Source: a virus
IMG/VR virus record: IMGVR_UViG_3300014202_001529
Direction: 5' to 3' (one strand)
DNA: 64,000 nucleotides
Shown: piece by piece, positions 8,351 through 24,494 of the stretch
How the letters are laid out: each line of letters starts with the position of its first letter
How positions within the stretch are numbered: the first letter of the stretch is position 1
Notes under the pieces: generated by a model
Seen by the model: only the letters and a program-made list of their open reading frames with translations
Told to the model about the DNA's origin: nothing
Database searches by the model: none
Made by a program: the position numbers and the translations under genes

Positions 8351-8428
8351 CCTCTTAAACAGATTGCAGCGGGAAGTTTGGCGAAGGGCGCCTTCTGTTC
8401 CCACTGTAATCGCTGCAATATTAAACTT

Positions 8429-8710
8429 TTATTGTGAAATAATCAATTTTTGTTTAAAAATTGGATTTATTTTAACGGCAACCATCTTTGCTCCGGATGA
8501 TGTGTATTTGACTCCCAGTTCGATGTCAATATTTTTTTCATCAAGCTTTTTGACTACGATCATCTGATCGAATAGTCCATATTTGTTTAAGTCGTGCAAT
8601 GTGAAATCAGGGTTATGTGCCCTGATAAATGCCCATGCAATTATGATTGCAATTGTCTTTTTATTAAGCATAACGTTTAGCGTTTTTGTGTTGTGAATTA
8701 TATTTTCCAA
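8429..8710 (-). CDS. Hypothetical protein (AT-rich insert)
   Basis: ORF only. Confidence 0.45.
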   Translation of the reverse strand: MENIIHNTKTLNVMLNKKTIAIIIAWAFIRAHNPDFTLHDLNKYGLFDQMIVVKKLDEKNIDIELGVKYTSSGAKMVAVKINPIFKQKLIISQ

Positions 8711-9099
8711 TCTTTTCTCGCCCCATAAACCGGTCGAATCTCAAACACCGCATTTGGCTCGTTCTTTTGCAGTTGCGCCTGCGCATCCTCTGCACTTTCT
8801 AAGTGTTCGTACAACCGCTTTTTGATGTATTCCAGTTGGAATCCGGTTTCTCCGATCCATTCTTTTTCATTGTGGGTAGTGGCGTATTTGGTATTCCTGT
8901 AAATGCAGTAGCCAACAATCGTGTACTCTTGAATGGTATCGGCAGAAACGGATTCTGCATCAAATAAAATTTTTATTGCTGGTTTTAACCGATTGAAGTA
9001 GTCCTTGTTTTGGCGTACAACTTCAATAATGTCATCAATAGTGATGATTTCGCCATCTATTTTTAGGTGAAAGGTTTCCATCTTTTTGACTTTTAGCAA
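8698..9099 (-). CDS. Hypothetical protein
   Basis: ORF in a co-oriented chain. Confidence 0.6.
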   Translation of the reverse strand: MLKVKKMETFHLKIDGEIITIDDIIEVVRQNKDYFNRLKPAIKILFDAESVSADTIQEYTIVGYCIYRNTKYATTHNEKEWIGETGFQLEYIKKRLYEHLESAEDAQAQLQKNEPNAVFEIRPVYGARKDWKI

Positions 9100-9314
9100 A
9101 AAAGAAATAAAAAATCATTACGCGATAGTTCTTGGTCTACATAATAAGTCTTCCAAAACGAGCATGATTTTAACCTTCGGTAGCTCCAGTGAGAATTGTT
9201 CCATTGTTGGAGTTTCATCGCTAAAATTGACTTATCGCCCGGAGTATAAGCCTTCCAAAGGACTAAAACAGTAGAGCTATGTGTACCTATTTTGGCGTTT
9301 ATAGTGTTTTTCAT
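9093..9314 (-). CDS. Hypothetical protein
   Basis: ORF in a co-oriented chain. Confidence 0.5.
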   Translation of the reverse strand: MKNTINAKIGTHSSTVLVLWKAYTPGDKSILAMKLQQWNNSHWSYRRLKSCSFWKTYYVDQELSRNDFLFLFC

Positions 9315-9323
9315 GGCTGCATT

Positions 9324-9548
9324 TTATTTATACTCAATCCAATATTTTGTGTTGTCTTGCGAACTCAACGCTTTAATCCATTCCGACAACGTACACCGGT
9401 ACCCAATTGGAACCCATCCCCAGTAGCTTACACAACCACCACTTTTTTCTGCAATCCGGCAATGGGTCATTGCGCCGGTTTGCGGGGTCAATAGGGACGA
9501 CGATTCCAGGTGGATTAAATTCGCGTATCCGAGTAGTATCTCTATCAT
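9324..9548 (-). CDS. Hypothetical protein
   Basis: ORF in a co-oriented chain. Confidence 0.4.
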   Translation of the reverse strand: MIEILLGYANLIHLESSSLLTPQTGAMTHCRIAEKSGGCVSYWGWVPIGYRCTLSEWIKALSSQDNTKYWIEYK

Positions 9549-9554
9549 CGGCCA

Positions 9555-10082
9555 CTATTTTTTTGGCCAATACCGCTGAATAACCATTAGGTATTCTTCA
9601 GTATTCCCATGATGAAGCGATCTAAGCGCTTCAAAAAAACAAACGATTTCTTCGTGTACACTAAATACTTTTTTGGGCAAATGATAGGTAAATTCTTGAT
9701 CATAGTTCCACTCAATCCGGTCTCCTTTAATAAGAAACTGCGCAAGGGCATTGATGATGGTTCGGGATTTATCTGCATGGCAGTTAAACCCTTCGTAGAC
9801 TTGTATGATTTCGTCCAACTGCGCTTCAACAAATTCAGAATTAAGAAATAACCATTTGGCTTTATCGCTTATTCCCTCAATTTTTGAACTCAAAAACCCA
9901 TTCAAAAACTTTTCATACGGGTAGATCATGGTGTAAAAAAAAGACTCAACATCTCCTATCTTTTGGAGACAGTCTTTGTTGATGTGATCGGCCTCCAAAA
10001 CGGCTTGGTAAAGTGCTATTTCTTCGGCTTTAATACCGTCAACCATTGACAGCATTATCTTTTTCAAACTAACTTCTTCCAT
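9555..10082 (-). CDS. Hypothetical protein (AT-rich)
   Basis: 175-aa ORF. Confidence 0.65.
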   Translation of the reverse strand: MEEVSLKKIMLSMVDGIKAEEIALYQAVLEADHINKDCLQKIGDVESFFYTMIYPYEKFLNGFLSSKIEGISDKAKWLFLNSEFVEAQLDEIIQVYEGFNCHADKSRTIINALAQFLIKGDRIEWNYDQEFTYHLPKKVFSVHEEIVCFFEALRSLHHGNTEEYLMVIQRYWPKK

Positions 10083-10834
10083 GTTGGTAGCTTTTTTCTA
10101 AAGTAATAAAACGCAAGTCCAAACAGCAACACCGCCACCAGCGCCCACGCCAGCGACCTGCCCTTAATATCCTCTCCCCGATCATCCGGACTGACAATTT
10201 CCCGGAACATGCCCACAATGGCCCCAAATGGCCGAAAAAGCCAGTCGAACGAGATTCCCCCCGATGATTGTTGTGTGATATTGGCCGATACGGTGTCGGT
10301 GTTGTAGCGCAGCCGCTTCTGGTTGTTCCAGTAAGCGTAGCGGGCACCCCGCCAGGTCTCCGTCCGTTTGCTGCGGAAAGATGGATACAGTTCTGATTGA
10401 ACTGTATCTATATGCAGGAAGGTATCATACACGCCAAAACCCCTTGCGCCGGCATCCCACAATGCCCGAAAAAGCGGGCCTTTGGCCTTGTAATCTTCGC
10501 GGATCGAAACGTACAGCCGATCTACCTCTGCCTGAGCGCCAATGAACTGGAAATCTATCGCACACGCAAGCATGTGCGGACTTTGAGAAACGCCCCCTGG
10601 GGGGACGTAAGTGCGGTAGGTGGACGTTATCCGGATTGGATAGTCGAAAGCGTCGCGGATGATCTGTACGCAGCGCACTGCCTGCAAGGAGATTGGATGC
10701 GAACGCCCGATTTTCGGATTATACAGTTCAGCTTCCGTGAAATTGTCCGTCACCCGAGCGGATGAACCGGCACTGACCATCACGAAATCGTTCGGGTCGT
10801 TGGCATGCAGTGGTAAAAGCGTGTCAGGCTTCAT
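10064..10834 (-). CDS. Peptidase M15-family Zn peptidase (peptidoglycan hydrolase) with C-terminal TM anchor
   Basis: ITSTYR...SPHMLACAIDF (H-x6-D) and FLHIDT zinc ligands; terminal LAWALVAVLLFGLAFYYF followed by RKK. Confidence 0.82.
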   Translation of the reverse strand: MKPDTLLPLHANDPNDFVMVSAGSSARVTDNFTEAELYNPKIGRSHPISLQAVRCVQIIRDAFDYPIRITSTYRTYVPPGGVSQSPHMLACAIDFQFIGAQAEVDRLYVSIREDYKAKGPLFRALWDAGARGFGVYDTFLHIDTVQSELYPSFRSKRTETWRGARYAYWNNQKRLRYNTDTVSANITQQSSGGISFDWLFRPFGAIVGMFREIVSPDDRGEDIKGRSLAWALVAVLLFGLAFYYFRKKLPTWKKLV

Positions 10835-11138
10835 CTTCTTGTTCTGATTTTAGCTTTAGCCAGAGGATTGCGGCCAGCACAATGACCAATATTAGCAAAA
10901 TCCCGGTTGCGAGCTTGTAATTAAATCCGGGTTTTGGTGGTGGTGCTGGTTGTGGCGTTGTTGCTGTTGTGGCTCCTTTTTCGACGAACGCGTTAATGGC
11001 GTTTTCAAATAAAGCGCCAACGAACTCCCCTTTGTAGGGCGTGCCGGTTTCACTGTCTTTTTGCTCTTCATAGAGCTTCAAGACGTTTTCGGCAATGCCT
11101 GCATCTACTTTCATTCCCAATAGGGTGACTTTGCTCAT
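10824..11138 (-). CDS. Small membrane protein with C-terminal TM
   Basis: Pro/Thr linker followed by LATGILLILVIVLAAILWL-KLK. Confidence 0.75.
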   Translation of the reverse strand: MSKVTLLGMKVDAGIAENVLKLYEEQKDSETGTPYKGEFVGALFENAINAFVEKGATTATTPQPAPPPKPGFNYKLATGILLILVIVLAAILWLKLKSEQEDEA

Positions 11139-11158
11139 ATCGCATCTTATTTAAGAAG

Positions 11159-11173
11159 TTGCAATATACGCAA
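11159..11173. promoter_or_regulatory. Operator palindrome, variant copy (TTGCAATATACGCAA)
   Basis: Matches TTGCG-N5-CGCAA with one mismatch; lies just upstream of the 11138 start. Confidence 0.6.
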
Positions 11174-11208
11174 TTTTTGTTTTATCAAACAAACCTGTAA
11201 AGGGATTT

Positions 11209-11613
11209 TTACACTGACTGGAATTGCCGCAGCTCTATCATCCCCTCTTCGACTGCCGCGTTGAAGGCATAAAGCACCAGCAGGTAGGCCGGGTCGGCGC
11301 TTTGGTGAACATCCTGCGTTTCCAAAATCGCTTCGTGCGATTCTGTGTTTTCGCGGTAGTACTTAATCAGCCGCTCTACAATTGCAGAAGCTGCGCCGCT
11401 TTTGGTTTTATAGATCCGGTCCACTTCTTTCCACCACGGAGCACCGTGGAATCTTACATTTTTGGTTTTGGCGTTGGCAAACGGGTTGTCGCCTTCGCTT
11501 TCCGCAGCAGCGGTATTGCTGTTCTTTTTCCACAAACGAAAAGCTGCATACCACGCGGCAATGGTGAGCAGAATCAATAGTACCAGGGCAATTGTAGCGG
11601 TCGTCTTTTTCAC
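11209..11613 (-). CDS. Membrane protein with N-terminal TM
   Basis: MKKTTATIALVLLILLTIAAWYAAF-RLWKK. Confidence 0.75.
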   Translation of the reverse strand: MKKTTATIALVLLILLTIAAWYAAFRLWKKNSNTAAAESEGDNPFANAKTKNVRFHGAPWWKEVDRIYKTKSGAASAIVERLIKYYRENTESHEAILETQDVHQSADPAYLLVLYAFNAAVEEGMIELRQFQSV

Positions 11614-11620
11614 GGCATTT

Positions 11621-11824
11621 CTATTTTCTTGCAGCAGCCACGCTGGCCGCTATCATCACAATGAGCAAAAACAATAAGCCCAGGATCACATACAACAGGG
11701 TATTATCCCTGCTTTTCTGGAAATCCTTGGCTGTCATCCAATCCGGTAGCCTACCCCAGCGAGCTTCTTTGTCGGCAGCAAAAAGGTTGGTGACGGATGT
11801 TAGAAACCCAAAAATTGCGTTCAT
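11621..11824 (-). CDS. Small membrane protein with C-terminal TM
   Basis: LLYVILGLLFLLIVMIAASVAAA-RK. Confidence 0.75.
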   Translation of the reverse strand: MNAIFGFLTSVTNLFAADKEARWGRLPDWMTAKDFQKSRDNTLLYVILGLLFLLIVMIAASVAAARK

Positions 11825-11828
11825 GACT

Positions 11829-12206
11829 TTATTTTTTACGACTCAACCGCCGCATAAGGAAAAAGCCGGTAATTCCAACCAAAACCAACAGGGCAATCAC
11901 AATCGGCCAGAGCATTTGTGTGCGCTCGGCCTCCTGCTGTTTTTCGCCGGTTGGGTCATAAAACTCTTCGATGGTTGCATCCTGGCCGGAGCAGGGATCG
12001 TATCCGTAGGCAGACATCACCACACGGCGGTCCACGTAGTTCCCGGTGCATAAAAACTCATCCTTGGTTGCAAGGTTGTAGTTCCCGCTGCACGCAGCGT
12101 CGCACGCACGTTCCAAATCGGGCTGCGCACCAAACCAGCTTTTGCACCGCTGCCGGCAATGCAGTTTTTTGCAGGATTTGTACCCTAAGCACGCTTCTAA
12201 GGCCAT
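11829..12206 (-). CDS. Cys-rich membrane protein with C-terminal TM
   Basis: Eight Cys in the N-terminal domain, then TM and RRLSRKK. Start MALEAC follows the stop of the 12211 ORF. Confidence 0.75.
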   Translation of the reverse strand: MALEACLGYKSCKKLHCRQRCKSWFGAQPDLERACDAACSGNYNLATKDEFLCTGNYVDRRVVMSAYGYDPCSGQDATIEEFYDPTGEKQQEAERTQMLWPIVIALLVLVGITGFFLMRRLSRKK

Positions 12207-12210
12207 AGCT

Positions 12211-12366
12211 TTATTTTTTTCGTGTGGATGCAAATACAAGCCCGGAAACGATCAGGGCAATGCCGACTACAATGCCGACAAAAATCAATATGCGCCGACG
12301 TTTCCTACCTGCGCAATTGTTGCAGCCGCAGCCGCAATCCTCTTTTTGTTCTTGTGGATGTTCCAT
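12211..12366 (-). CDS. 51-aa membrane microprotein with CGCGCNNC motif (not in ORF track)
   Basis: Hand translation: MEHPQEQKEDCGCGCNNCAGRKRRRILIFVGIVVGIALIVSGLVFASTRKK; fills the gap exactly. Confidence 0.7.
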   Translation of the reverse strand: MEHPQEQKEDCGCGCNNCAGRKRRRILIFVGIVVGIALIVSGLVFASTRKK

Positions 12367-12369
12367 GTG

Positions 12370-12702
12370 TTATTTTTTACCTCCCCTGAACAGGAAGATG
12401 ATCAATACCAGCACAACCACCACCACCAACGCCACAATGGCGTACATGAGCGTGTTGTTCTGTTGTGGTGCTGGTTGGCCGTTATAGCCTCCCGGCGTTG
12501 GATTGGAACCGCTGCCGCCCCGGTTCAGGATGGCGTCGAGCACTGCGCCCAGGCCGGTGCCCCAACCTGCGGCGTTTTCGCCGGAGTACCAGGGATCAGT
12601 TTTTGTGCCGTCGTTTCCAGCGCCCGTAGCGGATTGGCCCGTTGTTGGCGCCCGCAATCCTTTTATGTTGGAGCCGTAGCCCTGCATGCCAATGGTTTCC
12701 AT
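12370..12702 (-). CDS. Gly-rich small membrane protein with C-terminal TM
   Basis: Gly/Asn/Pro-rich N-terminus; LMYAIVALVVVVVLVLIIFLF followed by RGGKK. Confidence 0.75.
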   Translation of the reverse strand: METIGMQGYGSNIKGLRAPTTGQSATGAGNDGTKTDPWYSGENAAGWGTGLGAVLDAILNRGGSGSNPTPGGYNGQPAPQQNNTLMYAIVALVVVVVLVLIIFLFRGGKK

Positions 12703-12735
12703 AATACTGTTGCTTTTGAAAGTGAAAACATGAGC

Positions 12736-12765
12736 GCCTGCCTGCTTGAAAAGCAGCAGGCAGGC
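12736..12765. terminator. GC-rich hairpin (weak terminator or processing site)
   Basis: GCCTGCCTGCT-8 nt-AGCAGGCAGGC perfect 11-bp stem between two ORFs; poor U-tract. Confidence 0.45.
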
Positions 12766-12776
12766 ACCTGATTAAA

Positions 12777-13229
12777 TTACTGTGGCGATCCAGCCTGGAC
12801 ACGCGAATTCGTTTCTAATTGCTTCGTATTAGCGCTGCCACCCGGCGTCGGGAAAAACCATTTCAGGATGTACGTGTAAAATCCGGTCGCCGTGGCAAAG
12901 CCTGCAATCAGGTCCCAAAAACCGGCTTTCCCATTCACAAAGAAGATAACTGCTCCTACGCCCGCAATAACGATTACCCGAAGGCGGACTTCTGTGATTT
13001 TTTTCAGGAACGGAATCCAATTCGACAGGTACGTGATCAGGATAATCAGAAACCCGTACAACGCAGTGTACCAGCTCAGCCATTCCGGCAATCCCCAGCC
13101 CGGCATGGGCAGTGGAAGTGGTTCCGGTGTGACGGTTTGTGCCAGGCACCAGGCCGTCATGGTAAATGCAAACAAAACAAGCAGCCCCATGCGCAGCATG
13201 AAGCGGTTAAGGTTCAGATGAAGGTTCAT
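12777..13229 (-). CDS. Multi-TM membrane protein with signal-peptide-like N-terminus (holin-like candidate)
   Basis: MLRMGLLVLFAFTMTAWCLA-QT followed by three hydrophobic helices. Confidence 0.55.
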   Translation of the reverse strand: MNLHLNLNRFMLRMGLLVLFAFTMTAWCLAQTVTPEPLPLPMPGWGLPEWLSWYTALYGFLIILITYLSNWIPFLKKITEVRLRVIVIAGVGAVIFFVNGKAGFWDLIAGFATATGFYTYILKWFFPTPGGSANTKQLETNSRVQAGSPQ

Positions 13230-13488
13230 TCTGTTGACGTTTTTTTATATTGGTGGTGAAATAAATTATTGCGGCCATTAACAGGCAATCTCGAATTGTG
13301 TAAGCCACAACATCCGGATAGACCAAACACGCGAACGAAGCAGCAGGAATCGTCAGCAGCAGCATTCTTTTCCACACCTGCACGCAGTCCTCCAACGCCG
13401 TGACAAATAGCAGCACGCCGATGATGAATCCTGTGTTGATCAGGATGTTAAAAAAAAACCGAGCTGTTTCTAATCCTTCTTTTTCCAC
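13207..13488 (-). CDS. Small multi-TM membrane protein
   Basis: Three hydrophobic segments. Confidence 0.6.
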   Translation of the reverse strand: MEKEGLETARFFFNILINTGFIIGVLLFVTALEDCVQVWKRMLLLTIPAASFACLVYPDVVAYTIRDCLLMAAIIYFTTNIKKRQQNEPSSEP

Positions 13489-13826
13489 GGGTTTAAGTCG
13501 TTTATCACTTTTTGCGGATTTTCCAAAAACTTTTTGGAAAGCGTTAGTATTCCTCCAATCAGGTACATACCGGTTAGTCCGAAGACAAACCCAAATCCCG
13601 CTGCGGCAGAAATTTTCAGTTCAATGAAATTCTGCACCAGCAATATTCCGTAGTAAGCCGATGCCAGTCCGGAGGCTACTTGTACCAAGGCTTCAAAAAA
13701 GGTAATGCCCTTTTGATGCGCCACGGCCAGTATGCCGCCGACAAATCCGGCAATCAGCGTCGCAGCCATTTCGCTGCCTAACTTTTCCGCCAACCACAGC
13801 TTTAGTTCGTCATTGTTCATGGTCAT
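13470..13826 (-). CDS. Putative holin-like protein
   Basis: 118 aa, about three Gly/Ala-rich TMs and a charged C-tail ending KKKD, a layout common in phage holins. Confidence 0.55.
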   Translation of the reverse strand: MTMNNDELKLWLAEKLGSEMAATLIAGFVGGILAVAHQKGITFFEALVQVASGLASAYYGILLVQNFIELKISAAAGFGFVFGLTGMYLIGGILTLSKKFLENPQKVINDLNPWKKKD

Positions 13827-13877
13827 GTGTTAGCTTTCTCCACTGGGGGGGAGCTGTGGTGTTTAGAAATCAGTTCT

Positions 13878-15770
13878 CTACGGTACTTTTACCGTCGTAA
13901 TGGCTCGACCTTCTCTTACAATCAGCCAATCGTCTGGAATTGCCGTAGTGATCGTGGTATTCGGGCTTTTCTGTATCAGCCAATCCATTTTTTGTTCACC
14001 TGCGGTTATAGTCTCCATTGCTCCAGGAAGCAAATAATTCAAGGCGCTACCCGTAGCAAATCCTTCAGGCACGCAAACACCGATAAGGCCCTCCATATCG
14101 TCCGTTACCAGAAACCATTCTTTTTGCTTCTCATGCCCGAGTATGGCGCCCAAATGGTGCGACTCCAGCCCCTTGTAAGTGAAGGTGTAAGGCTTGATGG
14201 TTTGGAACCATAGCTTGATCTTAGTTCCGGTTTTCTGCATGGATGCGCGTTGCAAGGTCGTTGTTCGCACGCCGCCGTCTACGCCGGTGATGGTTTCCAC
14301 CTTCACATCCCAACCTTCGCGCTTCAGGATCATCTCAAAAAAATGGCGGCTGTAGAATGTGGCGTCCACAAAGCCGTGGTGGTCCAGCAGCACCAGGCCG
14401 CGATTGGTAAAAAATGTCTTGGTTTTGGTCAACGCATAGTCAAATGCGGCATCGTCCTGAAGGCGTGTGTTGAACACAACCGTCAGGAATATTTCCAGGT
14501 CGCGGAAAGCGGTGCCCGAGCTTGTTTTCCAGATCGTTCGCATAGCAGGTAGTACAAAGCGCACTTCGCGGTTTTCGCGCAGGGTGCTGTCCACCGGTGG
14601 ATCGGGGTCGGGATCAGGGTCGGTATAACCTGGCTTTCGTGGATCTTCGCCGTTTTTCAGCTTGGTGTTGTCGAATTCGAGCGGGCTTTTTGAGATGATT
14701 CCGGATAGCAGCGGACTGCCATAGCCAAAGAACTTATCCCAGCCCGGTGTGCCAAGGTTGTAGCTGTTTGCGGCAATGGATCGCTCGATTTGGTTGGCTG
14801 TCGCCTGTGGGTTCATGCTCGCATGAATGCCCGCAATGCCCGCCAAAATTGGAGTGGCCATGCTTGTTCCGGACATCTGCGCGTAGGCGTTCCCAAGGTG
14901 CGTACTGATGATGTTGCTCCCTGGTGCCGCTGCATATAGCTCCGGACCGTAGTTGCTGTAGGAAGCCCGGTTGCCATTGGCGTCGGCCAAAGCGCCAATG
15001 GCGTTGGCGTTTTTATCGGCCCCGGGGTGCGAAATTTTTTCCTGTCCGTTGTTCCCGGCTGCGATGATAACCAGTTGCCCGGCATCTCTGGCTTTTTGGA
15101 TGGCGGCACTGAGCGCTGCATCCGGACTGCTTCCGCCAAGCGAAAGGTTGTGGATGACGAACCAGCCTTGTTGCTGCAACACCTTTCCTTTTTCGATTCC
15201 GGAAAGCAGAGATGCAGTAATCCAGGGGTAGTTTCCCGCGCCGCTTTTGTTCAAACACTTGTGCAAGGCTGCACGCGCCTTCCCGGCCTCCACCAGCATT
15301 CGCGCTACGCCATACTCGATGTTTCCCTTCAGGGCCGCGATGCAGCCGAGCACGTGCGTGCCGTGGCCATGTTCGTCGAGCTTGACTGTTTCTCCGGTGA
15401 AGGTTTGGCACCTGCTTTTGTCCAGCACGGCCTGCAAGTCGGGGTGATTGGAATCGCCGGCAGTATCGTGAATAAACCAGAACACTGGCCGCTGCGCCGC
15501 TGACTTAATGGCCTGGTAGTAGGCCGATGTGCCAAACCACTGGTTGGCCCAGTTGCCTGCCTGCACATCGTAGTCCGATGGCCTGATGGCAATCTGTTCC
15601 ACCGGATCGAGCACCACATCGAAGTTTTCCTTCAGCAGGCGCACTTTTTCTTCTGCCGCAGACCATGTTTGATTGTCGTATGCTTCGGGCAATCCTTCGG
15701 GGACTTGCGCCGGGAGCATGTAGGCTGCAAAGAGCAACCAAGAGAGTGATAGGATGAGTTTGAGTTTCAT
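13878..15770 (-). CDS. Subtilisin-family (S8) serine protease with Sec signal peptide
   Basis: Asp in FIHDTAG, His in GHGTHVLG, oxyanion AAGNNG, Ser in MSGTSMATP. N-terminus MKLKLILSLSWLLFAAYMLPA-Q. Confidence 0.92.
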   Translation of the reverse strand: MKLKLILSLSWLLFAAYMLPAQVPEGLPEAYDNQTWSAAEEKVRLLKENFDVVLDPVEQIAIRPSDYDVQAGNWANQWFGTSAYYQAIKSAAQRPVFWFIHDTAGDSNHPDLQAVLDKSRCQTFTGETVKLDEHGHGTHVLGCIAALKGNIEYGVARMLVEAGKARAALHKCLNKSGAGNYPWITASLLSGIEKGKVLQQQGWFVIHNLSLGGSSPDAALSAAIQKARDAGQLVIIAAGNNGQEKISHPGADKNANAIGALADANGNRASYSNYGPELYAAAPGSNIISTHLGNAYAQMSGTSMATPILAGIAGIHASMNPQATANQIERSIAANSYNLGTPGWDKFFGYGSPLLSGIISKSPLEFDNTKLKNGEDPRKPGYTDPDPDPDPPVDSTLRENREVRFVLPAMRTIWKTSSGTAFRDLEIFLTVVFNTRLQDDAAFDYALTKTKTFFTNRGLVLLDHHGFVDATFYSRHFFEMILKREGWDVKVETITGVDGGVRTTTLQRASMQKTGTKIKLWFQTIKPYTFTYKGLESHHLGAILGHEKQKEWFLVTDDMEGLIGVCVPEGFATGSALNYLLPGAMETITAGEQKMDWLIQKSPNTTITTAIPDDWLIVREGRAITTVKVP

Positions 15771-15780
15771 ATTATTGATA

Positions 15781-15795
15781 TTGTGTTTTACGCAA
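15781..15795. promoter_or_regulatory. Operator palindrome, variant copy (TTGTGTTTTACGCAA)
   Basis: 10 bp upstream of the S8 start. Confidence 0.6.
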
Positions 15796-15798
15796 TTT

Positions 15799-18606
15799 TT
15801 AAACCAAAGCATAGGGCACAGTAACTCCTGAATAGTTTTCAATCCTATAAACAGTAGACCCTGAGCTTATATACATGTTAGTGCCAGTAATTGTAAGAGA
15901 TTTTGGGTTATCACTGTTAAGAGTAGCGTAGAGTTCTACTGACAAAGTTGTCAAGTCGATTCTGTAAATAGCAGGTTTGCCACTTACATTTGAGATTATC
16001 GAAGCATACAAGATATTCCCAACAGCTTGGAAACAATTAGACACTTGCCAGTTCTGACTACCCCAACTTGATCCTGATCCCCAACCATACTGTACAGCAG
16101 TGGAGTTTGTAGATATTGTTGTAGTTGACAAAACGTTCCCAATAAAACCAGCAGTAATTCCCGTAGGTATTTCTGATTTAGCTAAAGCTGTAACCCTAAC
16201 TCTTGAACTTGATTGCTCATTCCTTAACCAGAAAACATAATCATCGCTTGAACCCATAACTCCTAAGTCAGTAGGAAGGTCAGGGTCTTGTATTTCTAAA
16301 AGATGAACGTTACTATCATCTATTACAGATAGATCAAGTTCATCTATAACTGCTATATGTGGGTAAATGTCTAAGCCTGTATTCTCATCAATCCAGATTC
16401 CAGAACCAACAGTCTCTTCAAACCTAATACCTCTTAGCCCCGATCGTGACTTAGGTTGTAGTCCTATGTAAATATAAGAACCATCTGATTCTACCCCCCT
16501 TCCATTAAACCTGCAAGTATTGTAAAACTTGTTAATGGCTTCATGTCTTGCAAGGCCATAATTAGACATATAGTTTGTCAAAGCAGTTTCACATTCAGCA
16601 TCAGAATAAGTTTCTTGAGGAAGTAAAGATTGACTTCTAACACTTACGGTATTAGCTGTGCTTAAAGCAGCAGGTAAAGTTAAAGCTGTGTTTATAGTCC
16701 CAACAATATAAGACATATACAAGTAAATATTTCTGTAAGATGAAAGCCTTACACCTTCTCCTGTCAACACCCACTGACTGCCAACTCTTTTAGCATACAT
16801 GACTTCTCTCATACCCCCTTGAACGGGGATATTGGTTCTAACCACATTTGCAGGATCAGTTACATTTAATAACTCACATCCACTGATATATCCGTAAGTT
16901 AGTAATTCGTTAGTTGCCGCATTGAATATACTCCCATTAGGACTTAGTAATCTTGATGTGTAGGATATTCTATCATAAGTTTCTAAGCCTGTTAACTCTA
17001 CAATAGCAACGCCGGAATAACTTTTACCAACAACTGCAATTAAGTTTGTACCAATCTCAATTGCATTATTTAATAGACCTACAAAAGTTGGAACTTTATC
17101 AAAATTATAAGTATGGGCTGCTTCTGGTAAAGCCCAATCTGCCGTAGCCTTTACTGTAATACTTGCAAGGTCAGGTCTTTCTGGATCAATCTCTGTTATT
17201 ATCTCTCCGTAGAAAGCGGCTCTAACTTTTGTATTACTTAATGACCTAAACCAATCTTCCCCATCAGTTGCTGTGAATAAAGTTGTTCCATCTTTATAAT
17301 AAAACCCAAGCCCGTGCTCTTCCGTATGATCCCATATAGATATTTCAGCTACGATATAGCTATCAGGATCAGTAGTTGGATTATAAGCTTGAAACGTTTT
17401 GTTATCTGGCCGTATAAACCCTATTGTTCCTGCTAAATTGTACAGAAATGCAACATATTCATCACTACTTGAAAACCCAAAATCACCTCTAAAATTAGCC
17501 TTAAAATACCTTTTTGCGCTATTAGGTACAAATAACATTCCATCAGCTTTATCAAAACTATCTGTGTAGATTGCTTCTCCTGTTTCTTTATCTATTGCAT
17601 AAGACATTAACTGAGCAGCAGAACCATAGTAACTACCAAACCCGCCTTGATATACAAACCTACCAAACCCGATATAAGCGTCAAGAAACTCAGAGCTGAA
17701 GGTTCCTGTCATAAGAGCCGGGACATCTACCCTAAAGGAGTCAAGTGTTAAAACAGCAGACCATGCGGAATCGTCAACAGGAGTTGCAGTTTCATCAACC
17801 CAAGTTGCATTATTATAACCAGTAGACAAAACGGAGCCAGTAGAATACTGGCTATCAATATAAGTCGAAGGAGATTTAATATCTATAAACTTGAAAGTTC
17901 CATCTGCTTTTACAAACAACCTTCGTGTCGCAGAAGCTATTTCTCTATCGTCGGTATGCAGCCAGTAACCACTTGTTACAGTCAATCCAGAGCTTGCAAC
18001 TTCAGCAGCTATTGTAGATACTAAAGCTGTTTCATAGTCTGGTGCAAAATAATATTCACTATAAACCCCAGCAAAATCACCATCTATCTTTACAGCAGTA
18101 AGGTTAAAAGCTCCTAACCTGTGATTCATTTCGTTGTCGGTAGAAAACGAAACATTAGTTAACTCTTTTGTTACTACATCTAATTTAAAAAGCCCGGGGA
18201 TTCTACCAAAACCTCTTGTACCAAACCAAATATCACCATCTGATGAAGGTCTGGAAACATAAGTAAAGTCTCTAAAAGAGTGACTTAAAAAAGGAGAAAT
18301 ATAAGTACTCCCGTTTGTATAGTCATATCTTTTTAACTCCCCCGTCAAACAGTTTAATTCTAAAATATAGCCATAATAAGCCATAAAATATAAACAGTTT
18401 GATTTCCAAGAATAAGACATATAAGTTCTTGGAGGCTCTGTTGTAGAGTTTGATCCAGACCTAACTATAAATCCTGTTCCTGTTTCTGGGGTTAGTTGCA
18501 AAATAGCATACGAATTTAAGAAGACTATAATCTGGTCAAGACCTGTGACATCTTTCATCAGTACGACACCTGTTATACCGACGTTCTTTATTATTTCACT
18601 ATACAT
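15799..18606 (-). CDS. 935-aa beta-rich (propeller-like) putative receptor-binding or spike protein, low GC
   Basis: Short beta-strand/turn repeats rich in S, T, G, Y and D; lies in the fibre cluster; visibly AT-rich codon usage. Confidence 0.5.
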   Translation of the reverse strand: MYSEIIKNVGITGVVLMKDVTGLDQIIVFLNSYAILQLTPETGTGFIVRSGSNSTTEPPRTYMSYSWKSNCLYFMAYYGYILELNCLTGELKRYDYTNGSTYISPFLSHSFRDFTYVSRPSSDGDIWFGTRGFGRIPGLFKLDVVTKELTNVSFSTDNEMNHRLGAFNLTAVKIDGDFAGVYSEYYFAPDYETALVSTIAAEVASSGLTVTSGYWLHTDDREIASATRRLFVKADGTFKFIDIKSPSTYIDSQYSTGSVLSTGYNNATWVDETATPVDDSAWSAVLTLDSFRVDVPALMTGTFSSEFLDAYIGFGRFVYQGGFGSYYGSAAQLMSYAIDKETGEAIYTDSFDKADGMLFVPNSAKRYFKANFRGDFGFSSSDEYVAFLYNLAGTIGFIRPDNKTFQAYNPTTDPDSYIVAEISIWDHTEEHGLGFYYKDGTTLFTATDGEDWFRSLSNTKVRAAFYGEIITEIDPERPDLASITVKATADWALPEAAHTYNFDKVPTFVGLLNNAIEIGTNLIAVVGKSYSGVAIVELTGLETYDRISYTSRLLSPNGSIFNAATNELLTYGYISGCELLNVTDPANVVRTNIPVQGGMREVMYAKRVGSQWVLTGEGVRLSSYRNIYLYMSYIVGTINTALTLPAALSTANTVSVRSQSLLPQETYSDAECETALTNYMSNYGLARHEAINKFYNTCRFNGRGVESDGSYIYIGLQPKSRSGLRGIRFEETVGSGIWIDENTGLDIYPHIAVIDELDLSVIDDSNVHLLEIQDPDLPTDLGVMGSSDDYVFWLRNEQSSSRVRVTALAKSEIPTGITAGFIGNVLSTTTISTNSTAVQYGWGSGSSWGSQNWQVSNCFQAVGNILYASIISNVSGKPAIYRIDLTTLSVELYATLNSDNPKSLTITGTNMYISSGSTVYRIENYSGVTVPYALV

Positions 18607-19282
18607 TTTTCGTTACGTTTATAGTCCCTTCCACATTTTCAAACGTTAGAATGAATGAGGAGTCAAGAACTTGAGGAGATAGAAATAGCCCAGTATCGCC
18701 TTGTGTAGAAGCAGGCGGAGTTACCCAATTTACAGGATAACCATTGGGATAGATATAAATGTTATCATTACTTCCCATTGTAGGGTTTAATCTTTTTCTA
18801 ATTACTGTAACTTGGGTTGAAGAACCTTCTTCTATTTTTCCTATATAAATAGCTTTGTAGGGAAATACTAAATTAGTCAATTTATATCCATCTGCTATAA
18901 AAGGAGCATGAACCTCCATTTCATAAATGAATCCACTATTAATAAATCCATGTACAGGTAATGTTTCTATAACAGGCAAAGCTGTTAATTGTAAATATGT
19001 TCTTGGAGAGTCTTCTGTATTTACAACTCTTTGCCCTGTTTTGATTCTTACTCTATCTCCGGGAAATAAAGTTGGATTAAATAACTCTGCTTGTTCTACT
19101 GTTTCATACCACAATGTTTGTGGGCTTGTACTATTAAACAAGCTATGGCTAAAAGCTCCGGGCTTGCCAGATACTTTGGCTATTAGCGTGTACCGAACGC
19201 CCTCATATACGTACCAGTATTTTCTACCAGCAACAAGAGTAGTTGATCCGGGGATAAATCTAATAATCGGTATCCTTGCCAT
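18599..19282 (-). CDS. Hypothetical beta-rich structural protein, low GC
   Basis: Start taken at MARIP; in the fibre cluster. Confidence 0.55.
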   Translation of the reverse strand: MARIPIIRFIPGSTTLVAGRKYWYVYEGVRYTLIAKVSGKPGAFSHSLFNSTSPQTLWYETVEQAELFNPTLFPGDRVRIKTGQRVVNTEDSPRTYLQLTALPVIETLPVHGFINSGFIYEMEVHAPFIADGYKLTNLVFPYKAIYIGKIEEGSSTQVTVIRKRLNPTMGSNDNIYIYPNGYPVNWVTPPASTQGDTGLFLSPQVLDSSFILTFENVEGTINVTKNV

Positions 19283-19283
19283 A

Positions 19284-21788
19284 TTAATAGATTTTACGAC
19301 TATAAACAGAATAACGATATACCGTAATAGTGTCACTTCCGCTTACAGGCTCAATTCGTAGATCGAAAGTATCATCGGTGCTAACTGTTACGTTTACTTT
19401 AGGCAACGATACAACTCCATAAGTTCCAGTAGCTACTGTAATCCTTACTTTGGTAGAAGCAATTTCAGAACCTTCTTGGAATAAACTAACAAGATAATCT
19501 CCACCAGTTGTAGGAGTAAAACTAACGTTGCCTGTAATTTCAGTTTGACCGGAAGCTCCTATATAGGTAATAGTGCTTCCAGTTTGGGTAAACTCTGCGC
19601 TTACGTTTCCGGTAGGTGTACCGGGAGTGTCCCCATCAGGCAATTCAGGAGTTCCAGTAGTTACACTCGTAGAACCACCACTAATAGCAACTTCTCCCCA
19701 ATGTTCTACTGTTGAGATATAGGCTGTGTCTCTTGTACCTGTTACCTCTTGAATTGCAATACCAGAACCTCCTTTAAATACAACAGGAGTTCCGTTACTA
19801 TTATCTAATTGAAGAACATTCCCCGAACCAGACAAGCTAAGATTAGTAGGAACTAAATCTGCGGTATGAGCTACTGTAAATCTTGTACCAGATTGATTGG
19901 TAAATAGTAATCTTGCTCCCCCTGTTTCTGGTTCTAAGGTTAATGCTTGTGGTGTAGTTAATTGAACTCCATTGCTAAATTTGAAAGGAGCTAAAACAGA
20001 AGTACCAGCTTTTAAATGTAATCCAGCAGTAGGAGATGTAATCCCTAAGCCTACATTACCAGCAGGGTTAATAACCATATGAGCATTGTAAGAGCTGCCT
20101 CCATTTCCTACCTGAAACACGTCATTAGTGTAAGTTCTGATATGAGTTCCGCTTGTTGAAAGAGGAGCAGTGTCTACTGTGAATACAGTACCAGAAATCA
20201 CTTCTTTAACTGATCTATACGACATATTCGTACTGGTTGTTTCCAAGAGAGTAATCCCTTGTCCAACTGCTAAAGTTGCTACGGTTGAAGTAAGTGTTAT
20301 AGTATCAGATAAAGCAGTCCAATTGTTAGTTGTGGCCGTGTTATATCCCATTACTCTTATTTGTGGAATAATACCAAAACTAACTAAACCGCTACCTTGA
20401 GCAATAGTGGCTTTTTCAAAGTCACCATTTCCAACTCCAAGTAAAGCTGTACTGGCGCTTGATGAAATTAAAAGTCTTCCTATGGAGTAAGCATTGCTAT
20501 GCGCAGATGCAGCTTGATGGCCAAAAGCATAACCCCCATTACTACCGGCTGACAAATAACCAATTGCACAAGAAAAGCCTGTACCACCTAAACTGCCTCC
20601 ACCTCCAATCATTATACCATTTCCTCCTAAAGAAAAGCCGCTTCCTATGCCTATTCTTGTCTCCGCAGCAGTAGTAATCCCGGATTGGACATAAATCAAA
20701 TCTTGTTGATTAGACCCATGCCACGGAATCGGCCCTCTGACATTAAAATATGGCCTTCCTTGTAAAGCAGCAGTACTAAAGCCTATACCAAAATATCCTT
20801 TTGATGTAGTAGTTGTCGCAGGAGTAGTTGCGTAGGTTTGACCTTCAACTTCTATAAACGGAGGCCATTGTGGAGTCCCACTTGTAGCGGTTGTTGTATT
20901 TCTAAGAACAAGATTCTTTAAAGACCCATATGTTGCTCCTATTCCAGTAGCAGTCAATCTTAATCTTTGAGATTCATATTCAAAGTCAGAACTATACTTT
21001 AGCCTGCCAGTTGCTCCACTGTGAGCAACTTGATTTGGACTTCCAAGCCCGTCTGCTGTTTCAGATAAGATAACTGAATCAGGAAAACATATTGCAAGAG
21101 CAGCAATAGCTTCCGCCATGTTTGTTACAGGTACTCCGCAGATAGTATCAATTATAGCAACACTATCGGCATCCAAATCAAAACTCTCCCCACCTGTAAT
21201 ATTATTTACCCCTTCCGAAGTTGTGATGTTGAACAAAGGAACTGTCCCTACATCTTTAGAATAAGGCTTGACTGGGTTAATGATACTAATACCCCCTATT
21301 ACCTGTACAATTAAAACTTCACTTGTATCCGGACTTGGTAATAATCCGGCCCCTGTTGAATAATATTTCCCGTCAGGTAGTCCAAAGTTAGTTTCCACAA
21401 ATCCGCAGTAGACAATAATAAAGGAGTTGGCCGAAAGCGAGGATAAAACAATCCCGATTGCAAAAACCGTGTCCCCGTGAGGGATTTCAGCAAAGGCTGT
21501 TCCATTCCAGTAAACAGGATCAGAAGCGACAAAGCCATGCGAAGCCTGGGTAACCGTGTCTCTACAATATTCGTTTGCTCCCAACGCCCCTTTCAATTGT
21601 TGTAGTGTCAAATCCTGCGGAGTTGCCGATGATCCTGTCAAATTACCTTTTACGGTATTTGCAGGCATATCAGCCAGCCTGGCATTGTTGATCGTGGAGT
21701 CTTCCACGGGCACCACCACCCGTCTCCCCTGCTGCCCAAACGCCGAAAAGCCAGCCATAACAGCCAGCACAAGAATAAAAGATCGCAT
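19284..21788 (-). CDS. Fibre/spike-like protein with Sec signal peptide and YadA-head-like repeats
   Basis: MRSFILVLAVMAGFSAFG-QQ; LADMPANTVKGN fibre motif; AIGY..AG..G.YAFG..A repeats; GNVGLGITSP repeat. Confidence 0.65.
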   Translation of the reverse strand: MRSFILVLAVMAGFSAFGQQGRRVVVPVEDSTINNARLADMPANTVKGNLTGSSATPQDLTLQQLKGALGANEYCRDTVTQASHGFVASDPVYWNGTAFAEIPHGDTVFAIGIVLSSLSANSFIIVYCGFVETNFGLPDGKYYSTGAGLLPSPDTSEVLIVQVIGGISIINPVKPYSKDVGTVPLFNITTSEGVNNITGGESFDLDADSVAIIDTICGVPVTNMAEAIAALAICFPDSVILSETADGLGSPNQVAHSGATGRLKYSSDFEYESQRLRLTATGIGATYGSLKNLVLRNTTTATSGTPQWPPFIEVEGQTYATTPATTTTSKGYFGIGFSTAALQGRPYFNVRGPIPWHGSNQQDLIYVQSGITTAAETRIGIGSGFSLGGNGIMIGGGGSLGGTGFSCAIGYLSAGSNGGYAFGHQAASAHSNAYSIGRLLISSSASTALLGVGNGDFEKATIAQGSGLVSFGIIPQIRVMGYNTATTNNWTALSDTITLTSTVATLAVGQGITLLETTSTNMSYRSVKEVISGTVFTVDTAPLSTSGTHIRTYTNDVFQVGNGGSSYNAHMVINPAGNVGLGITSPTAGLHLKAGTSVLAPFKFSNGVQLTTPQALTLEPETGGARLLFTNQSGTRFTVAHTADLVPTNLSLSGSGNVLQLDNSNGTPVVFKGGSGIAIQEVTGTRDTAYISTVEHWGEVAISGGSTSVTTGTPELPDGDTPGTPTGNVSAEFTQTGSTITYIGASGQTEITGNVSFTPTTGGDYLVSLFQEGSEIASTKVRITVATGTYGVVSLPKVNVTVSTDDTFDLRIEPVSGSDTITVYRYSVYSRKIY

Positions 21789-21816
21789 ATAATTAGAGTT
21801 GATCATGTCAAGATAA

Positions 21817-23262
21817 TTAAGGTTTAATCTTTAAATTTCGATCGCCGGTGACGCGGTACACGCCGCCCGATGGAAGCCCCCCATCGGCATCTGCGGCAGC
21901 GTCGTTGGCATAGGATGGAATATCTGGGTGAATGACTAAATCGCCGCTGGCGTCCTGGTAGATGGCGTTCTTTTTCCAGAAAACAAACCCGTCTAAATCT
22001 GAACCTATTACATCAGAAACAGTCCCTTGAAGACCAAGCGAATCATAAATTTTCCCTTTAAAATAGGAGTCGCCGTTGACTGAAAAAAATACGCCAGGAC
22101 CGCGAGTAGCTGGTGTGGTTATGGGGGGCACAGTAGCGCCAATTCTGAACGTTGTAATGGAATCAAAATAAGTCACGTTAGCTTGTAGCTGGATAGCCAA
22201 ATTTCCAGATTGTGTGTAAAGCCAGAATCTCGGAGGGTTAGGCGCAGCGCTGGTAACTGTATTAAAAGTAATAGCTGGCTGCCCGCCCATCGTCCACCGA
22301 AGTACGCTGCCTCCAGGGCTTTCTATGTGCACATTAGCAGTAGGTACTTGCAGGCCAATGCCAACTTTTCCAGTGTGGTAAATGTCCTGCGTGATGTTGG
22401 ATGGGATGGTGTTTGCCGTGCCGGAAACATACCAGTCTGCATCACCGCTACCCGCGTTGATTGGGTAGTTGTCCACATCCCCATTGTAATACTCCACCCG
22501 CAGCGTCGTATCCCCTGGAGTGGTTACCGAAATGACCGGATTGTTGATGACCGGGCTCCCCCCCGGCCCAAACGAAACCACCAATTCCGGCACATCAAAA
22601 TATGCCTTATCCGTCCCGAACGTTCGGAAACCAAAAATGGCGTAGGTGCTGTCCGGAGTGGTCCCGAAGGTGCCGTTGTCCTGAAGGAAATAGTCATTGC
22701 CTTCCGGGCGCCCATGCGCCCAGGTGAGCCAGCCTTCGTTTTGGATCACAAAGGTGTTGGCATCTATGACCTGGCTGATGAACGCAACCGGGAAACTATC
22801 CGGTTCGGAAGCACTGGCCGGGAAGTAATCGCCGTTTCCGGGTTCCTGGCCGACCATCGTGCCAGCAAAAAAACCGTGCCCCGTTTGGGTGATGGTGTCT
22901 CCACCTACGAAAGCCTGTATGATCTGTTGGATATTCGAGCCAGCCGTGAAGGTGTTGCCGCCAATGGTGATGTTGGCCGTGGTGAAAATGTTGTCAGCCT
23001 GGGCATTGATGATGGTTGTGTCGCCGCTGATGGCGTAGGTATAGGTACCGTCGCCGTTGTCGGTCAGAGTGCCACCTCCACCGGTGCCCGGGGGAAGTAC
23101 GTCAATCAGCCGGCGAAACTGAAGCTCGCCAAGGCTGTCAGAGTAGAGGATGTAGGCGCTATCCGGCGCCACATAAATCTGCTTCGCCGGGTTGATGCGG
23201 CGTTGTGCGGTCAAGGCCGTCACGGTGAGCAAAAGAGCGAGTATGGTGAAAAGTTTCTTCAT
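21817..23262 (-). CDS. Fibre/spike-like protein with Sec signal peptide
   Basis: MKKLFTILALLLTVTALTA-QR; LTDNGDGTYTY and GKVGIGLQVP repeats; shares a TQxxHGF...NxFxI domain with the neighbouring fibre. Confidence 0.65.
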   Translation of the reverse strand: MKKLFTILALLLTVTALTAQRRINPAKQIYVAPDSAYILYSDSLGELQFRRLIDVLPPGTGGGGTLTDNGDGTYTYAISGDTTIINAQADNIFTTANITIGGNTFTAGSNIQQIIQAFVGGDTITQTGHGFFAGTMVGQEPGNGDYFPASASEPDSFPVAFISQVIDANTFVIQNEGWLTWAHGRPEGNDYFLQDNGTFGTTPDSTYAIFGFRTFGTDKAYFDVPELVVSFGPGGSPVINNPVISVTTPGDTTLRVEYYNGDVDNYPINAGSGDADWYVSGTANTIPSNITQDIYHTGKVGIGLQVPTANVHIESPGGSVLRWTMGGQPAITFNTVTSAAPNPPRFWLYTQSGNLAIQLQANVTYFDSITTFRIGATVPPITTPATRGPGVFFSVNGDSYFKGKIYDSLGLQGTVSDVIGSDLDGFVFWKKNAIYQDASGDLVIHPDIPSYANDAAADADGGLPSGGVYRVTGDRNLKIKP

Positions 23263-23268
23263 GGCCGT

Positions 23269-23661
23269 TTAGCTGAATATTTGATATTTGACAAAGATGT
23301 TGGCGGCAATTCGGGGTGCAGTGAAAACAATGGTATCCACCGCAGCACCAGCGCCATACGTGACCGAAAAATCCAGAATGGGATAGTCGTCTACCCCTTC
23401 TGTTTTCACCGCCATAAGCGCCAGGTTGGTTGGTAGTTTTCCGCCGTTGACGCCGATGGGCACGGGCAGGTTGGTGCCGGAAAAGTTCTCTTCGACAAAA
23501 TAGAAAGCGCCGGTAAGCACGCCGGATATGCCAACAATTTGTGATGGGTGAACCCTGACGACTTTCCCGTTGGTCAGCTCCAATACAAGCCAATCCCCAT
23601 TGCTTAGCGCAATGTCCGGATCGGTTAATGCTGAAGGCTTATTTCCCGTAATATTGCACAT
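23269..23661 (-). CDS. Small beta-rich putative structural protein
   Basis: 130 aa with alternating hydrophobic strands. Confidence 0.55.
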   Translation of the reverse strand: MCNITGNKPSALTDPDIALSNGDWLVLELTNGKVVRVHPSQIVGISGVLTGAFYFVEENFSGTNLPVPIGVNGGKLPTNLALMAVKTEGVDDYPILDFSVTYGAGAAVDTIVFTAPRIAANIFVKYQIFS

Positions 23662-23673
23662 GTGCTGAGCGTA

Positions 23674-24081
23674 TTACACAAAGGCGATATAGTTGCCTAA
23701 GTGGTCCATTAAAAAATGATTCTGGTGCGTCATGATGGCGTTGGTCAGACCGGTTGCCGGTTCTACGTTTGCGTATCCAGCACAGTCCAACACGTCCATC
23801 TCGACGTTTATGTTCTCGTAAATTTCAAATCCAGGGGGGAAGGTTTTGACCACCGCAATGGGGAATGGCGTGTTGAGCGTGAAAGCCCCCGAAACGCCGT
23901 CTACTTCCAAAAAGGCAATGTCGCTGATGCTGTTGATGGCGTTTTTTGTTCCGGCCAGGGTGACGGTGCCTTCGTTGGCGCCCGCATCCGTGAACCTGAA
24001 GGTGACCTGAATGGGGTCACTCAGGTCGCAGTTGGGTGCGACGACTTTGCATATCTGAAGGCTTATTTTGACGTTTGCCAT
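23674..24081 (-). CDS. Small beta-rich putative structural protein (vertex/penton candidate)
   Basis: 135 aa, predominantly beta pattern; position between capsid candidate and fibres. Confidence 0.5.
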   Translation of the reverse strand: MANVKISLQICKVVAPNCDLSDPIQVTFRFTDAGANEGTVTLAGTKNAINSISDIAFLEVDGVSGAFTLNTPFPIAVVKTFPPGFEIYENINVEMDVLDCAGYANVEPATGLTNAIMTHQNHFLMDHLGNYIAFV

Positions 24082-24093
24082 TGGGTGCTGGTT

Positions 24094-24417
24094 TTAGGTG
24101 ATTGGGACGAATCCAAAACCGGGTGTGGGAATGGTACGGCATTCGGTAGCGTAGGTGGCAAAGTTGTCGTAGCTCGCTTGCACGCAGATGATGTCGCCGT
24201 TTTCGAGTTCCACGGTATACTCGATCTGGTTGGTGCCGGTGTTTGGTTCGCCGGCAGTGGTTTCAATCACGATGCCGTCTCGGGTGATGACCACGCGCAC
24301 ATCGTCGCCGATGCTGCCGGTGCTGTCCACTGTCAGGCCGTCGCCGTCGTAGCCTTCGTTTTGAGCGAAAGGCAAAGGCCCAGAACTGCCAAAAACCCGA
24401 CTGCAACTAAAACTCAT
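24094..24417 (-). CDS. Small beta-rich putative structural protein
   Basis: 107 aa from MSFSC; Ig- or jelly-roll-like strand pattern. Confidence 0.5.
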   Translation of the reverse strand: MSFSCSRVFGSSGPLPFAQNEGYDGDGLTVDSTGSIGDDVRVVITRDGIVIETTAGEPNTGTNQIEYTVELENGDIICVQASYDNFATYATECRTIPTPGFGFVPIT

Positions 24418-24494
24418 ATTCGTGGAAATTAAAAATGGCCTTGCCCGAAACAAGTCAAGCAAGGCCATTTATGTGTTAGCAATTACTTGCTGTA

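Follow-up and report, generated by a model that had tools for sequence, protein, structure and literature searches.

How does a virus complete its particles when its fibres appear to be built for export? The question is raised by a 64,000-nucleotide stretch of viral DNA, IMG/VR record IMGVR_UViG_3300014202_001529, called the window here, in which two large fibre-like proteins, a subtilisin-family (S8) protease and a small membrane protein begin with putative Sec signal peptides followed by Gln. Textbook phage assembly is wholly cytoplasmic and, to our knowledge, Sec-routed virion proteins occur in filamentous phages only. The reading we favour, with a probability of about 0.55, is that the signal-bearing fibres are matured in the periplasm and attached at lysis, and that this is a general trait of Bacteroidota phages and not a consequence of a tailless membrane build.

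We searched for leaders with a heuristic scan of the roughly 78 open reading frames (ORFs) of the window, looking for an N-terminal hydrophobic core, a small-x-small site and Gln. Only four ORFs carry all of these: a fibre of 481 amino acids (aa), referred to as fibre 1; an 834-aa fibre, fibre 2; the S8 protease; and a 150-aa membrane protein. These are the proteins to which the initial annotation had assigned leaders with Gln, and the sequence has them as it described. All four leaders have a net n-region charge of +1 to +2 and an uncharged core of 16 to 17 residues. Position +1 is Q in 4/4; position −1 is A, G, A and A, and position −3 is L, A, L and C, two of which are not small. Fibre 1 starts with the n-region MKK, followed by a 16-residue core that ends in LTA before the Q. 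The corresponding parts are MR, 16 residues and AFG in fibre 2, and MKLK, 17 residues and LPA in the protease; the leader of the 150-aa protein ends in CLA before Q, with two more membrane helices after it. The start codons lie 6 to 29 nucleotides (nt) from upstream stops, and since these stops are so close we hold the leader starts as fixed. The fibre 1 ATG sits 6 nt past the upstream stop, and the protease starts at ATG 15770, 29 nt beyond the stop of the 935-aa gene, and not at TTG 15842. For both fibre genes an independent gene caller picked identical starts, and it placed that of the protease 14 codons upstream of its leader. With much Ala, Thr, Gly and Ser, the cores may recall the weakly hydrophobic N-terminal helices of signal-arrest-release (SAR) proteins, which stay uncleaved and are released on depolarisation; the conserved canonical cleavage site and Gln are features that a SAR domain would not require. 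Past the predicted cut, the ORF scan found no membrane helix and no lipobox in the fibres. Lipoprotein-type leaders stand on two further ORFs, at 31735-32244 (…CCTAAC) and 30260-30577 (…ILAGC, from an internal ATG), which may be further exported proteins of the element.

Table 1. Genes discussed in the text, with their positions in the window.
Feature	Position	Strand	Remarks
Fibre 1, 481 aa	21817..23262	-	signal peptide residues 1-19 (nt 23206-23262); predicted cut between A19 and Q20
Fibre 2, 834 aa (840 aa from ATG 21806)	19284..21788 (or 21806)	-	signal peptide 1-18; predicted cut between G18 and Q19
S8 (subtilisin-family) protease, 630 aa	13878..15770	-	signal peptide 1-21; predicted cut between A21 and Q22
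150-aa protein	12777..13229 (probably ATG 13199)	-	leader ending CLA before Q, plus two membrane helices; lysis region
227-aa protein, middle gene of the fibre 2 cassette	18599..19282	-	leaderless; weak similarity to a 239-aa protein at the same position in L006
935-aa protein, last gene of the fibre 2 cassette	15799..18606	-	leaderless; full-length homologue of the L006 935-aa protein
Holin	13470..13826	-	three membrane helices
Candidate coat protein, 236 aa	25762..26472	-	single jelly-roll-type beta-sandwich
Small P-loop ATPase, 257 aa	26974..27747	-	resembles A32/HerA/Zot-type viral packaging ATPases

The initial annotation had let its case depend on whether the signal peptides are conserved in homologues, and they are. 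In the fibre 1 family, a leader with Gln is present in 24 of 27 database relatives (26-83% identity), and the remaining three begin inside the protein. Among the closest relatives of the protease, those sharing its conserved C-terminal domain of about 200 aa, the count is 21/23, and the other two are cut at the N-terminus and still have '...A-Q'. This domain matches no known family; the Asp, His and Ser motifs of an S8 protease are present. Four related loci, L001, L005, L009 and L010, share with the window the order of the genes for coat candidate, small proteins, hydrolases and fibre 1. In them the second and third large proteins after fibre 1 all carry a leader with Gln, though these proteins are mutually dissimilar. 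The pattern is found in 9/9 such second and third fibres, and two relatives of the 834-aa protein (P0029 and P0030) also keep the leader. The 150-aa protein has no homologue in the four loci. Throughout the homologues, position −1 is A, G, S or C. The leader sequences diverge freely while the property of being a leader is kept, and therefore it is the property that is under selection, not the sequence. In all, the pattern recurs across about 50 divergent homologues.

Gln at +1 is a signature of Bacteroidota signal peptidase I substrates (PMC5837995; PMC10653852). Because the leaders have the form used by host Sec and signal peptidase I with Gln at +1, and keep it across divergent homologues, export of the fibres, the protease and the membrane protein is well supported as a prediction from sequence. 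The type IX secretion system (T9SS) does not appear to be involved. The C-terminal sorting domains of its cargo (type A, TIGR04183; type B, TIGR04131) gave no Pfam or NCBIfam match even at E ≤ 1 in the 481-, 834- and 935-aa proteins, the S8 protease or their relatives. Their absence, already stated in the initial annotation, thus holds, and we rejected the idea that these proteins are T9SS cargo. After cleavage, fibre 1 would begin with Q-R-R-I-N-P-A-K-Q, placing a conserved basic motif right after the cut, and the second fibres would begin with Q-x(0-2)-R, often with G before and R, L or V after. These basic N-termini, together with a conserved C-terminal motif described below, are candidate docking sites.

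Are the two large proteins really fibres? The monomer model of fibre 1 is confident only in residues ~118-232 (predicted local distance difference test, pLDDT, >90) and in the C-terminal motif, residues ~449-481. The first of these regions is a beta-tulip domain. Its best match is the Adjutor protein 8saj (Z score 8.5, root-mean-square deviation 3.4 over 112 residues), followed, at Z from 8.5 to 5, by the Patience, HFTV1 and Pam3 decoration proteins and by fragments of phi29 gp12 and gp8.5, among them the head-fibre base. Although such a Z is moderate, the highest-ranking matches are phage structural proteins throughout, from tailed phages and an archaeal tailed virus. The AlphaFold DB neighbours of the domain are DUF2190, tail-collar fibre, S74-fibre and 'structural' proteins. 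When residues 233-481 were modelled in three copies, they formed an intertwined homotrimer with about 800 inter-chain contacts and a score of 0.88, against 0.00 for the best control, and their pLDDT rose from <50 in the monomer to 83-92. When this score was calibrated, 20/30 solved homo-pairs came up to that value, as did 1/23 single chains; the calibration is a rough guide here, because the model used an alignment of our own and three copies. The modelling thus supports, and does not prove, an intertwined homotrimer for the C-terminal half of fibre 1. The name 'fibre-like' given by the initial annotation is supported by the beta-tulip match, the trimer model, the fibre neighbours in AlphaFold DB and a motif shared with fibre 2.

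The C-terminal motif of fibre 1, YANDAAADAD..LPSGGVY.VTGDR.LRIKP, spans about 33 residues (window 21817-21915) and is nearly invariant in 23 of 27 family members (among P0002-P0027 and the window copy). It is modelled confidently as a short helix and a hairpin, has no match in Pfam or NCBIfam, and could be a docking or sorting signal. Many relatives of fibre 1 (P0007, P0013, P0014, P0016, P0017 and P0023) have a Cys-rich module (PVCW…CCCSG) after the leader that is not in the window copy; it suggests disulfide bonding, with oxidative folding outside the cytoplasm. In L010, a leaderless 240-aa protein (8160-8882), whose N-terminus is like that of window 23269-23661, shares its C-terminal domain with a signal-bearing 355-aa protein (8921-9988), and therefore one distal domain occurs in a cytoplasmic and an exported version. 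Searches by tblastn against phages gave no match for the 481-aa and 935-aa proteins, and PDB sequence searches gave nothing useful.

Fibre 2 is the first gene of a cassette of low GC content, a 6-kb block (15799-21806) with a GC fraction of 0.39 vs 0.53-0.54 in the flanking genes. Its N-terminus bears a motif of the tail-fibre type, and the beta-tulip-type motif 'DT(I/V)TQ..HGF' of fibre 1 occurs in it again. By tblastn against phages, only the short N-terminal motif is matched, in hypothetical proteins of Rhodobacter phages that lie among replication genes and are uninformative. Language-model features place fibre 2 weakly (0.82-0.84) near trimer proteins of the YadA-head and phage-tail-like kinds from Bacteroidota cells. 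The same three-gene block is present in a crAss-like contig, L006 (GC 0.335), at 10001-16591 (block GC 0.35), where it directly follows genes for a portal (PHROG E 1.4e-41), a major head protein of the crAss type (Pfam Crass_capsid; PHROG 2.3e-26) and a further structural protein of the virion. The L006 fibre has 1017 aa, a leader with Gln, and 39% identity to the 834-aa fibre over 280 residues; the two 935-aa proteins are 29% identical over their full length (E 4e-96). Judged by these comparisons, a signal-bearing fibre cassette appears to have been exchanged between this element and a tailed crAss-like phage, and the GC contrast together with the homology looks like a recent transfer between a tailed and a probably tailless virus.

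A cultured siphovirus, Cellulophaga phage phi10:1 (KC821618), provides a further case. Four of its proteins, gp091-gp094, carry the annotation 'structural protein, experimental MS/MS proteomics' (tandem mass spectrometry); like the pectate lyase gp095, each of them begins with a leader and then Gln. The virion proteomics is said to be that of Holmfeldt and colleagues, from 2013.

The two window fibres are also rich in a putative glycosylation sequon, which lends uneven support to a periplasmic stage. The Bacteroidota O-glycosylation sequon is D-(S/T)-(A/I/L/V/M/T) (PMC8550257). Fibre 1 has 8 such sequons vs 2.3 expected (P = 0.0005) and fibre 2 has 10 vs 3.0 expected (P = 0.001). Their leaderless 935-aa neighbour has 1 vs 4.3 expected, and most cytoplasmic proteins of the window are also without enrichment. 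Fibres of L006, L009 and L010 are enriched as well. As a general marker we rejected the sequon: its enrichment holds for the window fibres and those of L006, L009 and L010, and not for L001, L005 or phi10:1.

What kind of virus encodes these proteins? Between about 55.6 kb and 0.3 kb, almost every gene is encoded on the minus strand. Pfam and PHROGs identify a tyrosine integrase with a Bacteroidota-type arm-binding domain (56643-57818), a DnaB helicase, several DNA methylases and PAPS-reductase-like proteins, and, as lysis-type genes, the holin and GH108 and M15 wall hydrolases, in addition to the S8 protease. The presence of a holin indicates that the virus is released by lysis. Among the 40 larger ORFs of the window, Pfam and PHROGs recognised no terminase, portal, HK97 coat or tail protein. 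The 236-aa coat candidate is modelled as one beta-sandwich of about 170 residues (pLDDT 82). The best 50 Foldseek matches are all single jelly-roll virus coats, but they are weak (E ~1e-3), and the VIA matches, at Z ≤ 6.0, include capsid entries of phiCjT23, PR772 and FLiP. Its family comprises about 21 representative clusters of ~240 aa among 1.84 billion proteins. The 257-aa ATPase has Walker A and B motifs; it has no sequence match in Pfam, NCBIfam or PDB, and is close to Pox_A32/HerA/Zot-type viral ATPases in language-model features (0.97) and in its Atlas model (TM up to 0.68). The ATPase, the coat candidate and a run of one-helix microproteins all lie upstream of the fibre genes. On the strength of the lack of recognised tail genes in the window and of moderate fold evidence for a jelly-roll coat, we regard the element as probably a tailless, membrane-protein-rich temperate virus.

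Proteins of the window are found on metagenome contigs of up to 230 kb, and relatives are located in metagenome-assembled genomes of Saprospiraceae. These placements point to a virus integrated in a Saprospiraceae-type (Bacteroidota) genome. Megablast of positions 13-24.5 kb of the window against GenBank phages gave no match. IMG/VR scans with the 481-aa protein, the 834-aa protein and the beta-tulip alignment, queries that did not include the coat candidate or the ATPase, returned no relatives, and neither did a scan of GTDB species genomes with the beta-tulip alignment.

Some neighbouring genes deserve mention. Just upstream of fibre 1, at 23269-24468, are three small leaderless proteins of 130, 135 and 124 aa that are conserved in L010 and L001; they are candidate vertex or adaptor proteins that would receive the fibres. 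A Cys-rich protein with a C-terminal membrane helix, at 11829-12239, is kept in L001, L005 and L010 (28-55% identity) and is a core gene of this virus lineage.

How, then, would exported fibres reach a particle? In the pathway we propose, host signal peptidase I would cut the four Sec leaders and expose Gln, which the Bacteroidota host would cyclise to pyroglutamate according to the Q-rule. Two trimeric fibres, a subtilisin-type protease and a small membrane protein would in this way be sent out of the cytoplasm. The fibres would fold and trimerise in the periplasm, possibly with O-glycosylation by the host, and would meet the cytoplasm-assembled capsids only once the holin and endolysins break the envelope. 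They may then bind capsids via the decoration-type beta-tulip domain, via their conserved ends, or both. The exported protease, which the lineage conserves, might mature the fibres or attack envelope proteins at lysis. The initial annotation had proposed that export implies one of three unusual topologies: budding or envelopment, loading into the lumen of an internal vesicle, or decoration after lysis. The first two are weakened, because they cannot apply to the tailed crAss-like phage, which has the same cassette with the leader kept, or to the tailed phi10:1, and because the fibres would be anchorless after cleavage and the lysis set of holin and endolysin is a normal one; only late attachment outside the cytoplasm fits all cases. 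Together, the crAss-like cassette and the leader-bearing tail-end proteins recorded for phi10:1 virions point to a general trait; signal-bearing fibres look like a widespread and little-described habit of Bacteroidota phages. A broader proposal is tentative, and we would put it below even odds. It holds that Bacteroidota phages of unrelated build (a probably tailless jelly-roll virus, a crAss-like podovirus and Cellulophaga siphoviruses) complete their particles outside the cytoplasm with Sec-exported, pyroglutamate-trimmed, periplasm-folded and sometimes glycosylated fibres that dock only at lysis, and that fibre cassettes are exchangeable between tailed and tailless viruses.

Several points weigh against periplasmic maturation and late attachment as a general trait. 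Fibres that attach only after lysis would be diluted and would bind inefficiently, by a mechanism not known so far. Arg just after the cut, as in Q-R-R or Q-Q-G-R-R, is unfavourable for Sec export in E. coli and is what fits a Sec substrate least well; it could instead mark a membrane anchor. A more distant S8 homologue in L005 (14900-16312, 28% identity, same C-terminal domain) is leaderless. In the cultured crAss001, tail fibres gp22-26 are all leaderless; we therefore rejected the idea that the trait is universal in Crassvirales, and it is lineage-specific there. Sequon enrichment is absent from the L001 and L005 fibres and from phi10:1 gp091-095. Finally, MS/MS of virions can detect co-purifying envelope material.

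A different role for the same exported proteins has to be weighed. They may never join the virion and instead work at the host envelope, whether in the periplasm or on the outside of the cell, which we consider less likely, though it is a serious alternative and the strongest of them. Resembling the signal-bearing chimeric fibres on the surface of Bdellovibrio, they could mask or destroy receptors, excluding superinfecting phages or preventing re-adsorption to debris, or the protease could aid breakdown of the outer membrane at lysis. Q-rule proteins of Porphyromonas gingivalis phages have been read as host-surface modifiers (PMC10367356), and cell-displayed fibres made of phage-fibre parts exist (PMC10769870). 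The weak resemblance of fibre 2 to trimer proteins of Bacteroidota cells is in keeping with such a role, as are the holin adjoining the protease and 150-aa genes and the lack of a recognised spanin in the window. What speaks for the virion is that the fibre genes have a fixed place, the one expected of receptor-binding proteins. In five related elements they come straight behind the genes for the coat and for small structural proteins, and in L006 they follow the head genes. The fibres also show the mosaic domain swapping typical of receptor-binding proteins, these elements contain no other fibre or spike candidate, and the analogous phi10:1 proteins are annotated as virion components.

A topology dictated by a membrane virus is improbable in our estimate: the leader would stay uncleaved and anchor the fibre in an internal membrane, or the fibre would lie in the lumen of a vesicle, or the virus would take an envelope by budding into the periplasm. 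In favour of it, the element looks tailless and encodes many small membrane proteins, an A32/HerA-like ATPase and a candidate coat protein of jelly-roll type; Pfam and PHROGs recognised no terminase, portal or tail genes, and basic residues flank the hydrophobic core on both sides. The near-universal small-x-small site with Gln nevertheless argues for cleavage, after which the fibres would have neither membrane helix nor lipobox. The same cassette is found in a tailed phage without a membrane, the holin and peptidoglycan hydrolases indicate lytic release, and a decoration-type beta-tulip with swapped distal domains suggests a protein that faces outward. It is very improbable, finally, that the leaders are an artefact of mis-called starts or chance hydrophobic N-termini and that the proteins stay cytoplasmic. 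Our leader scan was heuristic, but the recurrence of the pattern in so many divergent homologues, the short distances to the upstream stops and the starts chosen by the independent gene caller (for the protease, upstream of the leader) all argue for genuine leaders.

Should the fibres prove to be exported and to belong to the particle, the final step of assembly would take place outside the cytoplasm. Host-range engineering would change, and expression of such fibres for structural work would need oxidising or glycosylating conditions. Phage annotation would change as well, as signal peptides are now used as an argument against a virion role.

How does this system compare with those already known? 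Spikes of PRD1 and other Tectiviridae (P5, P2 and P31) are fibres of a tailless, membrane-containing icosahedral phage; the same role would apply here, and the small ATPase of the window is similar to those of the A32/P9 class. The spikes of PRD1 are not known to carry signal peptides. We found no sequence or fold match to P5 or P2 among the window proteins, and a likeness to PRD1 spikes was therefore rejected. The coat candidate also differs, being a single jelly roll and not the double jelly roll of a PRD1-type major capsid protein (it is modelled as one sandwich), and the genome is about 4 times larger. Beta-tulip proteins of the lambda gpD type and of the phi29 head fibre are trimers that bind finished capsids from outside. 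The known ones (Adjutor 8saj, Patience 8giu, Pam3 8hdt, phi29 gp8.5 6qyy and DUF2190) share the fold of fibre 1 residues ~118-232. Unlike the window domain, which is embedded in a 481-aa exported fibre and matches them at moderate Z, they are small, cytoplasmic and leaderless.

The mosaic adhesive trimer (MAT) fibres of Bdellovibrio are signal-bearing trimeric fibres derived from phage tail-fibre modules and displayed on the cell (Caulton et al. 2024, PMC10769870). Like the window fibres, they are assembled from phage-fibre modules and exported by a Gram-negative cell; unlike them, they are encoded by chromosomal genes of a predator that displays them on its own surface, whereas the window genes stand in a viral late operon beside lysis genes. 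Bacteroidota Q-rule substrates (Bochtler et al. 2018, PMC5837995; PMC10653852), including proteins of P. gingivalis phages (PMC10367356), have the same tripartite leader, a small residue at −1 and Gln at +1. The P. gingivalis phage proteins, whose function was given as unknown (Matrishin et al. 2023, PMC10367356), are likewise phage-encoded and use the host export route. The window differs from them in that its proteins, for which cleavage is predicted, are large trimeric proteins of fibre parts and a protease, with the fibres at a receptor-binding position in the late operon of a probably tailless virus. In the literature we searched, we found no description of signal peptides on fibre proteins of Bacteroidota phages.

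Phi10:1 is a parallel in arrangement, with signal-bearing consecutive late genes after the tail genes and gp091-094 annotated as virion proteins. It differs in being a tailed siphovirus, in having no detected sequence similarity to the window proteins and in lacking sequon enrichment. What is new here is the presence of the trait in a probably tailless jelly-roll lineage and the exchange, as sequence comparison suggests, of a fibre cassette with a crAss-like phage.

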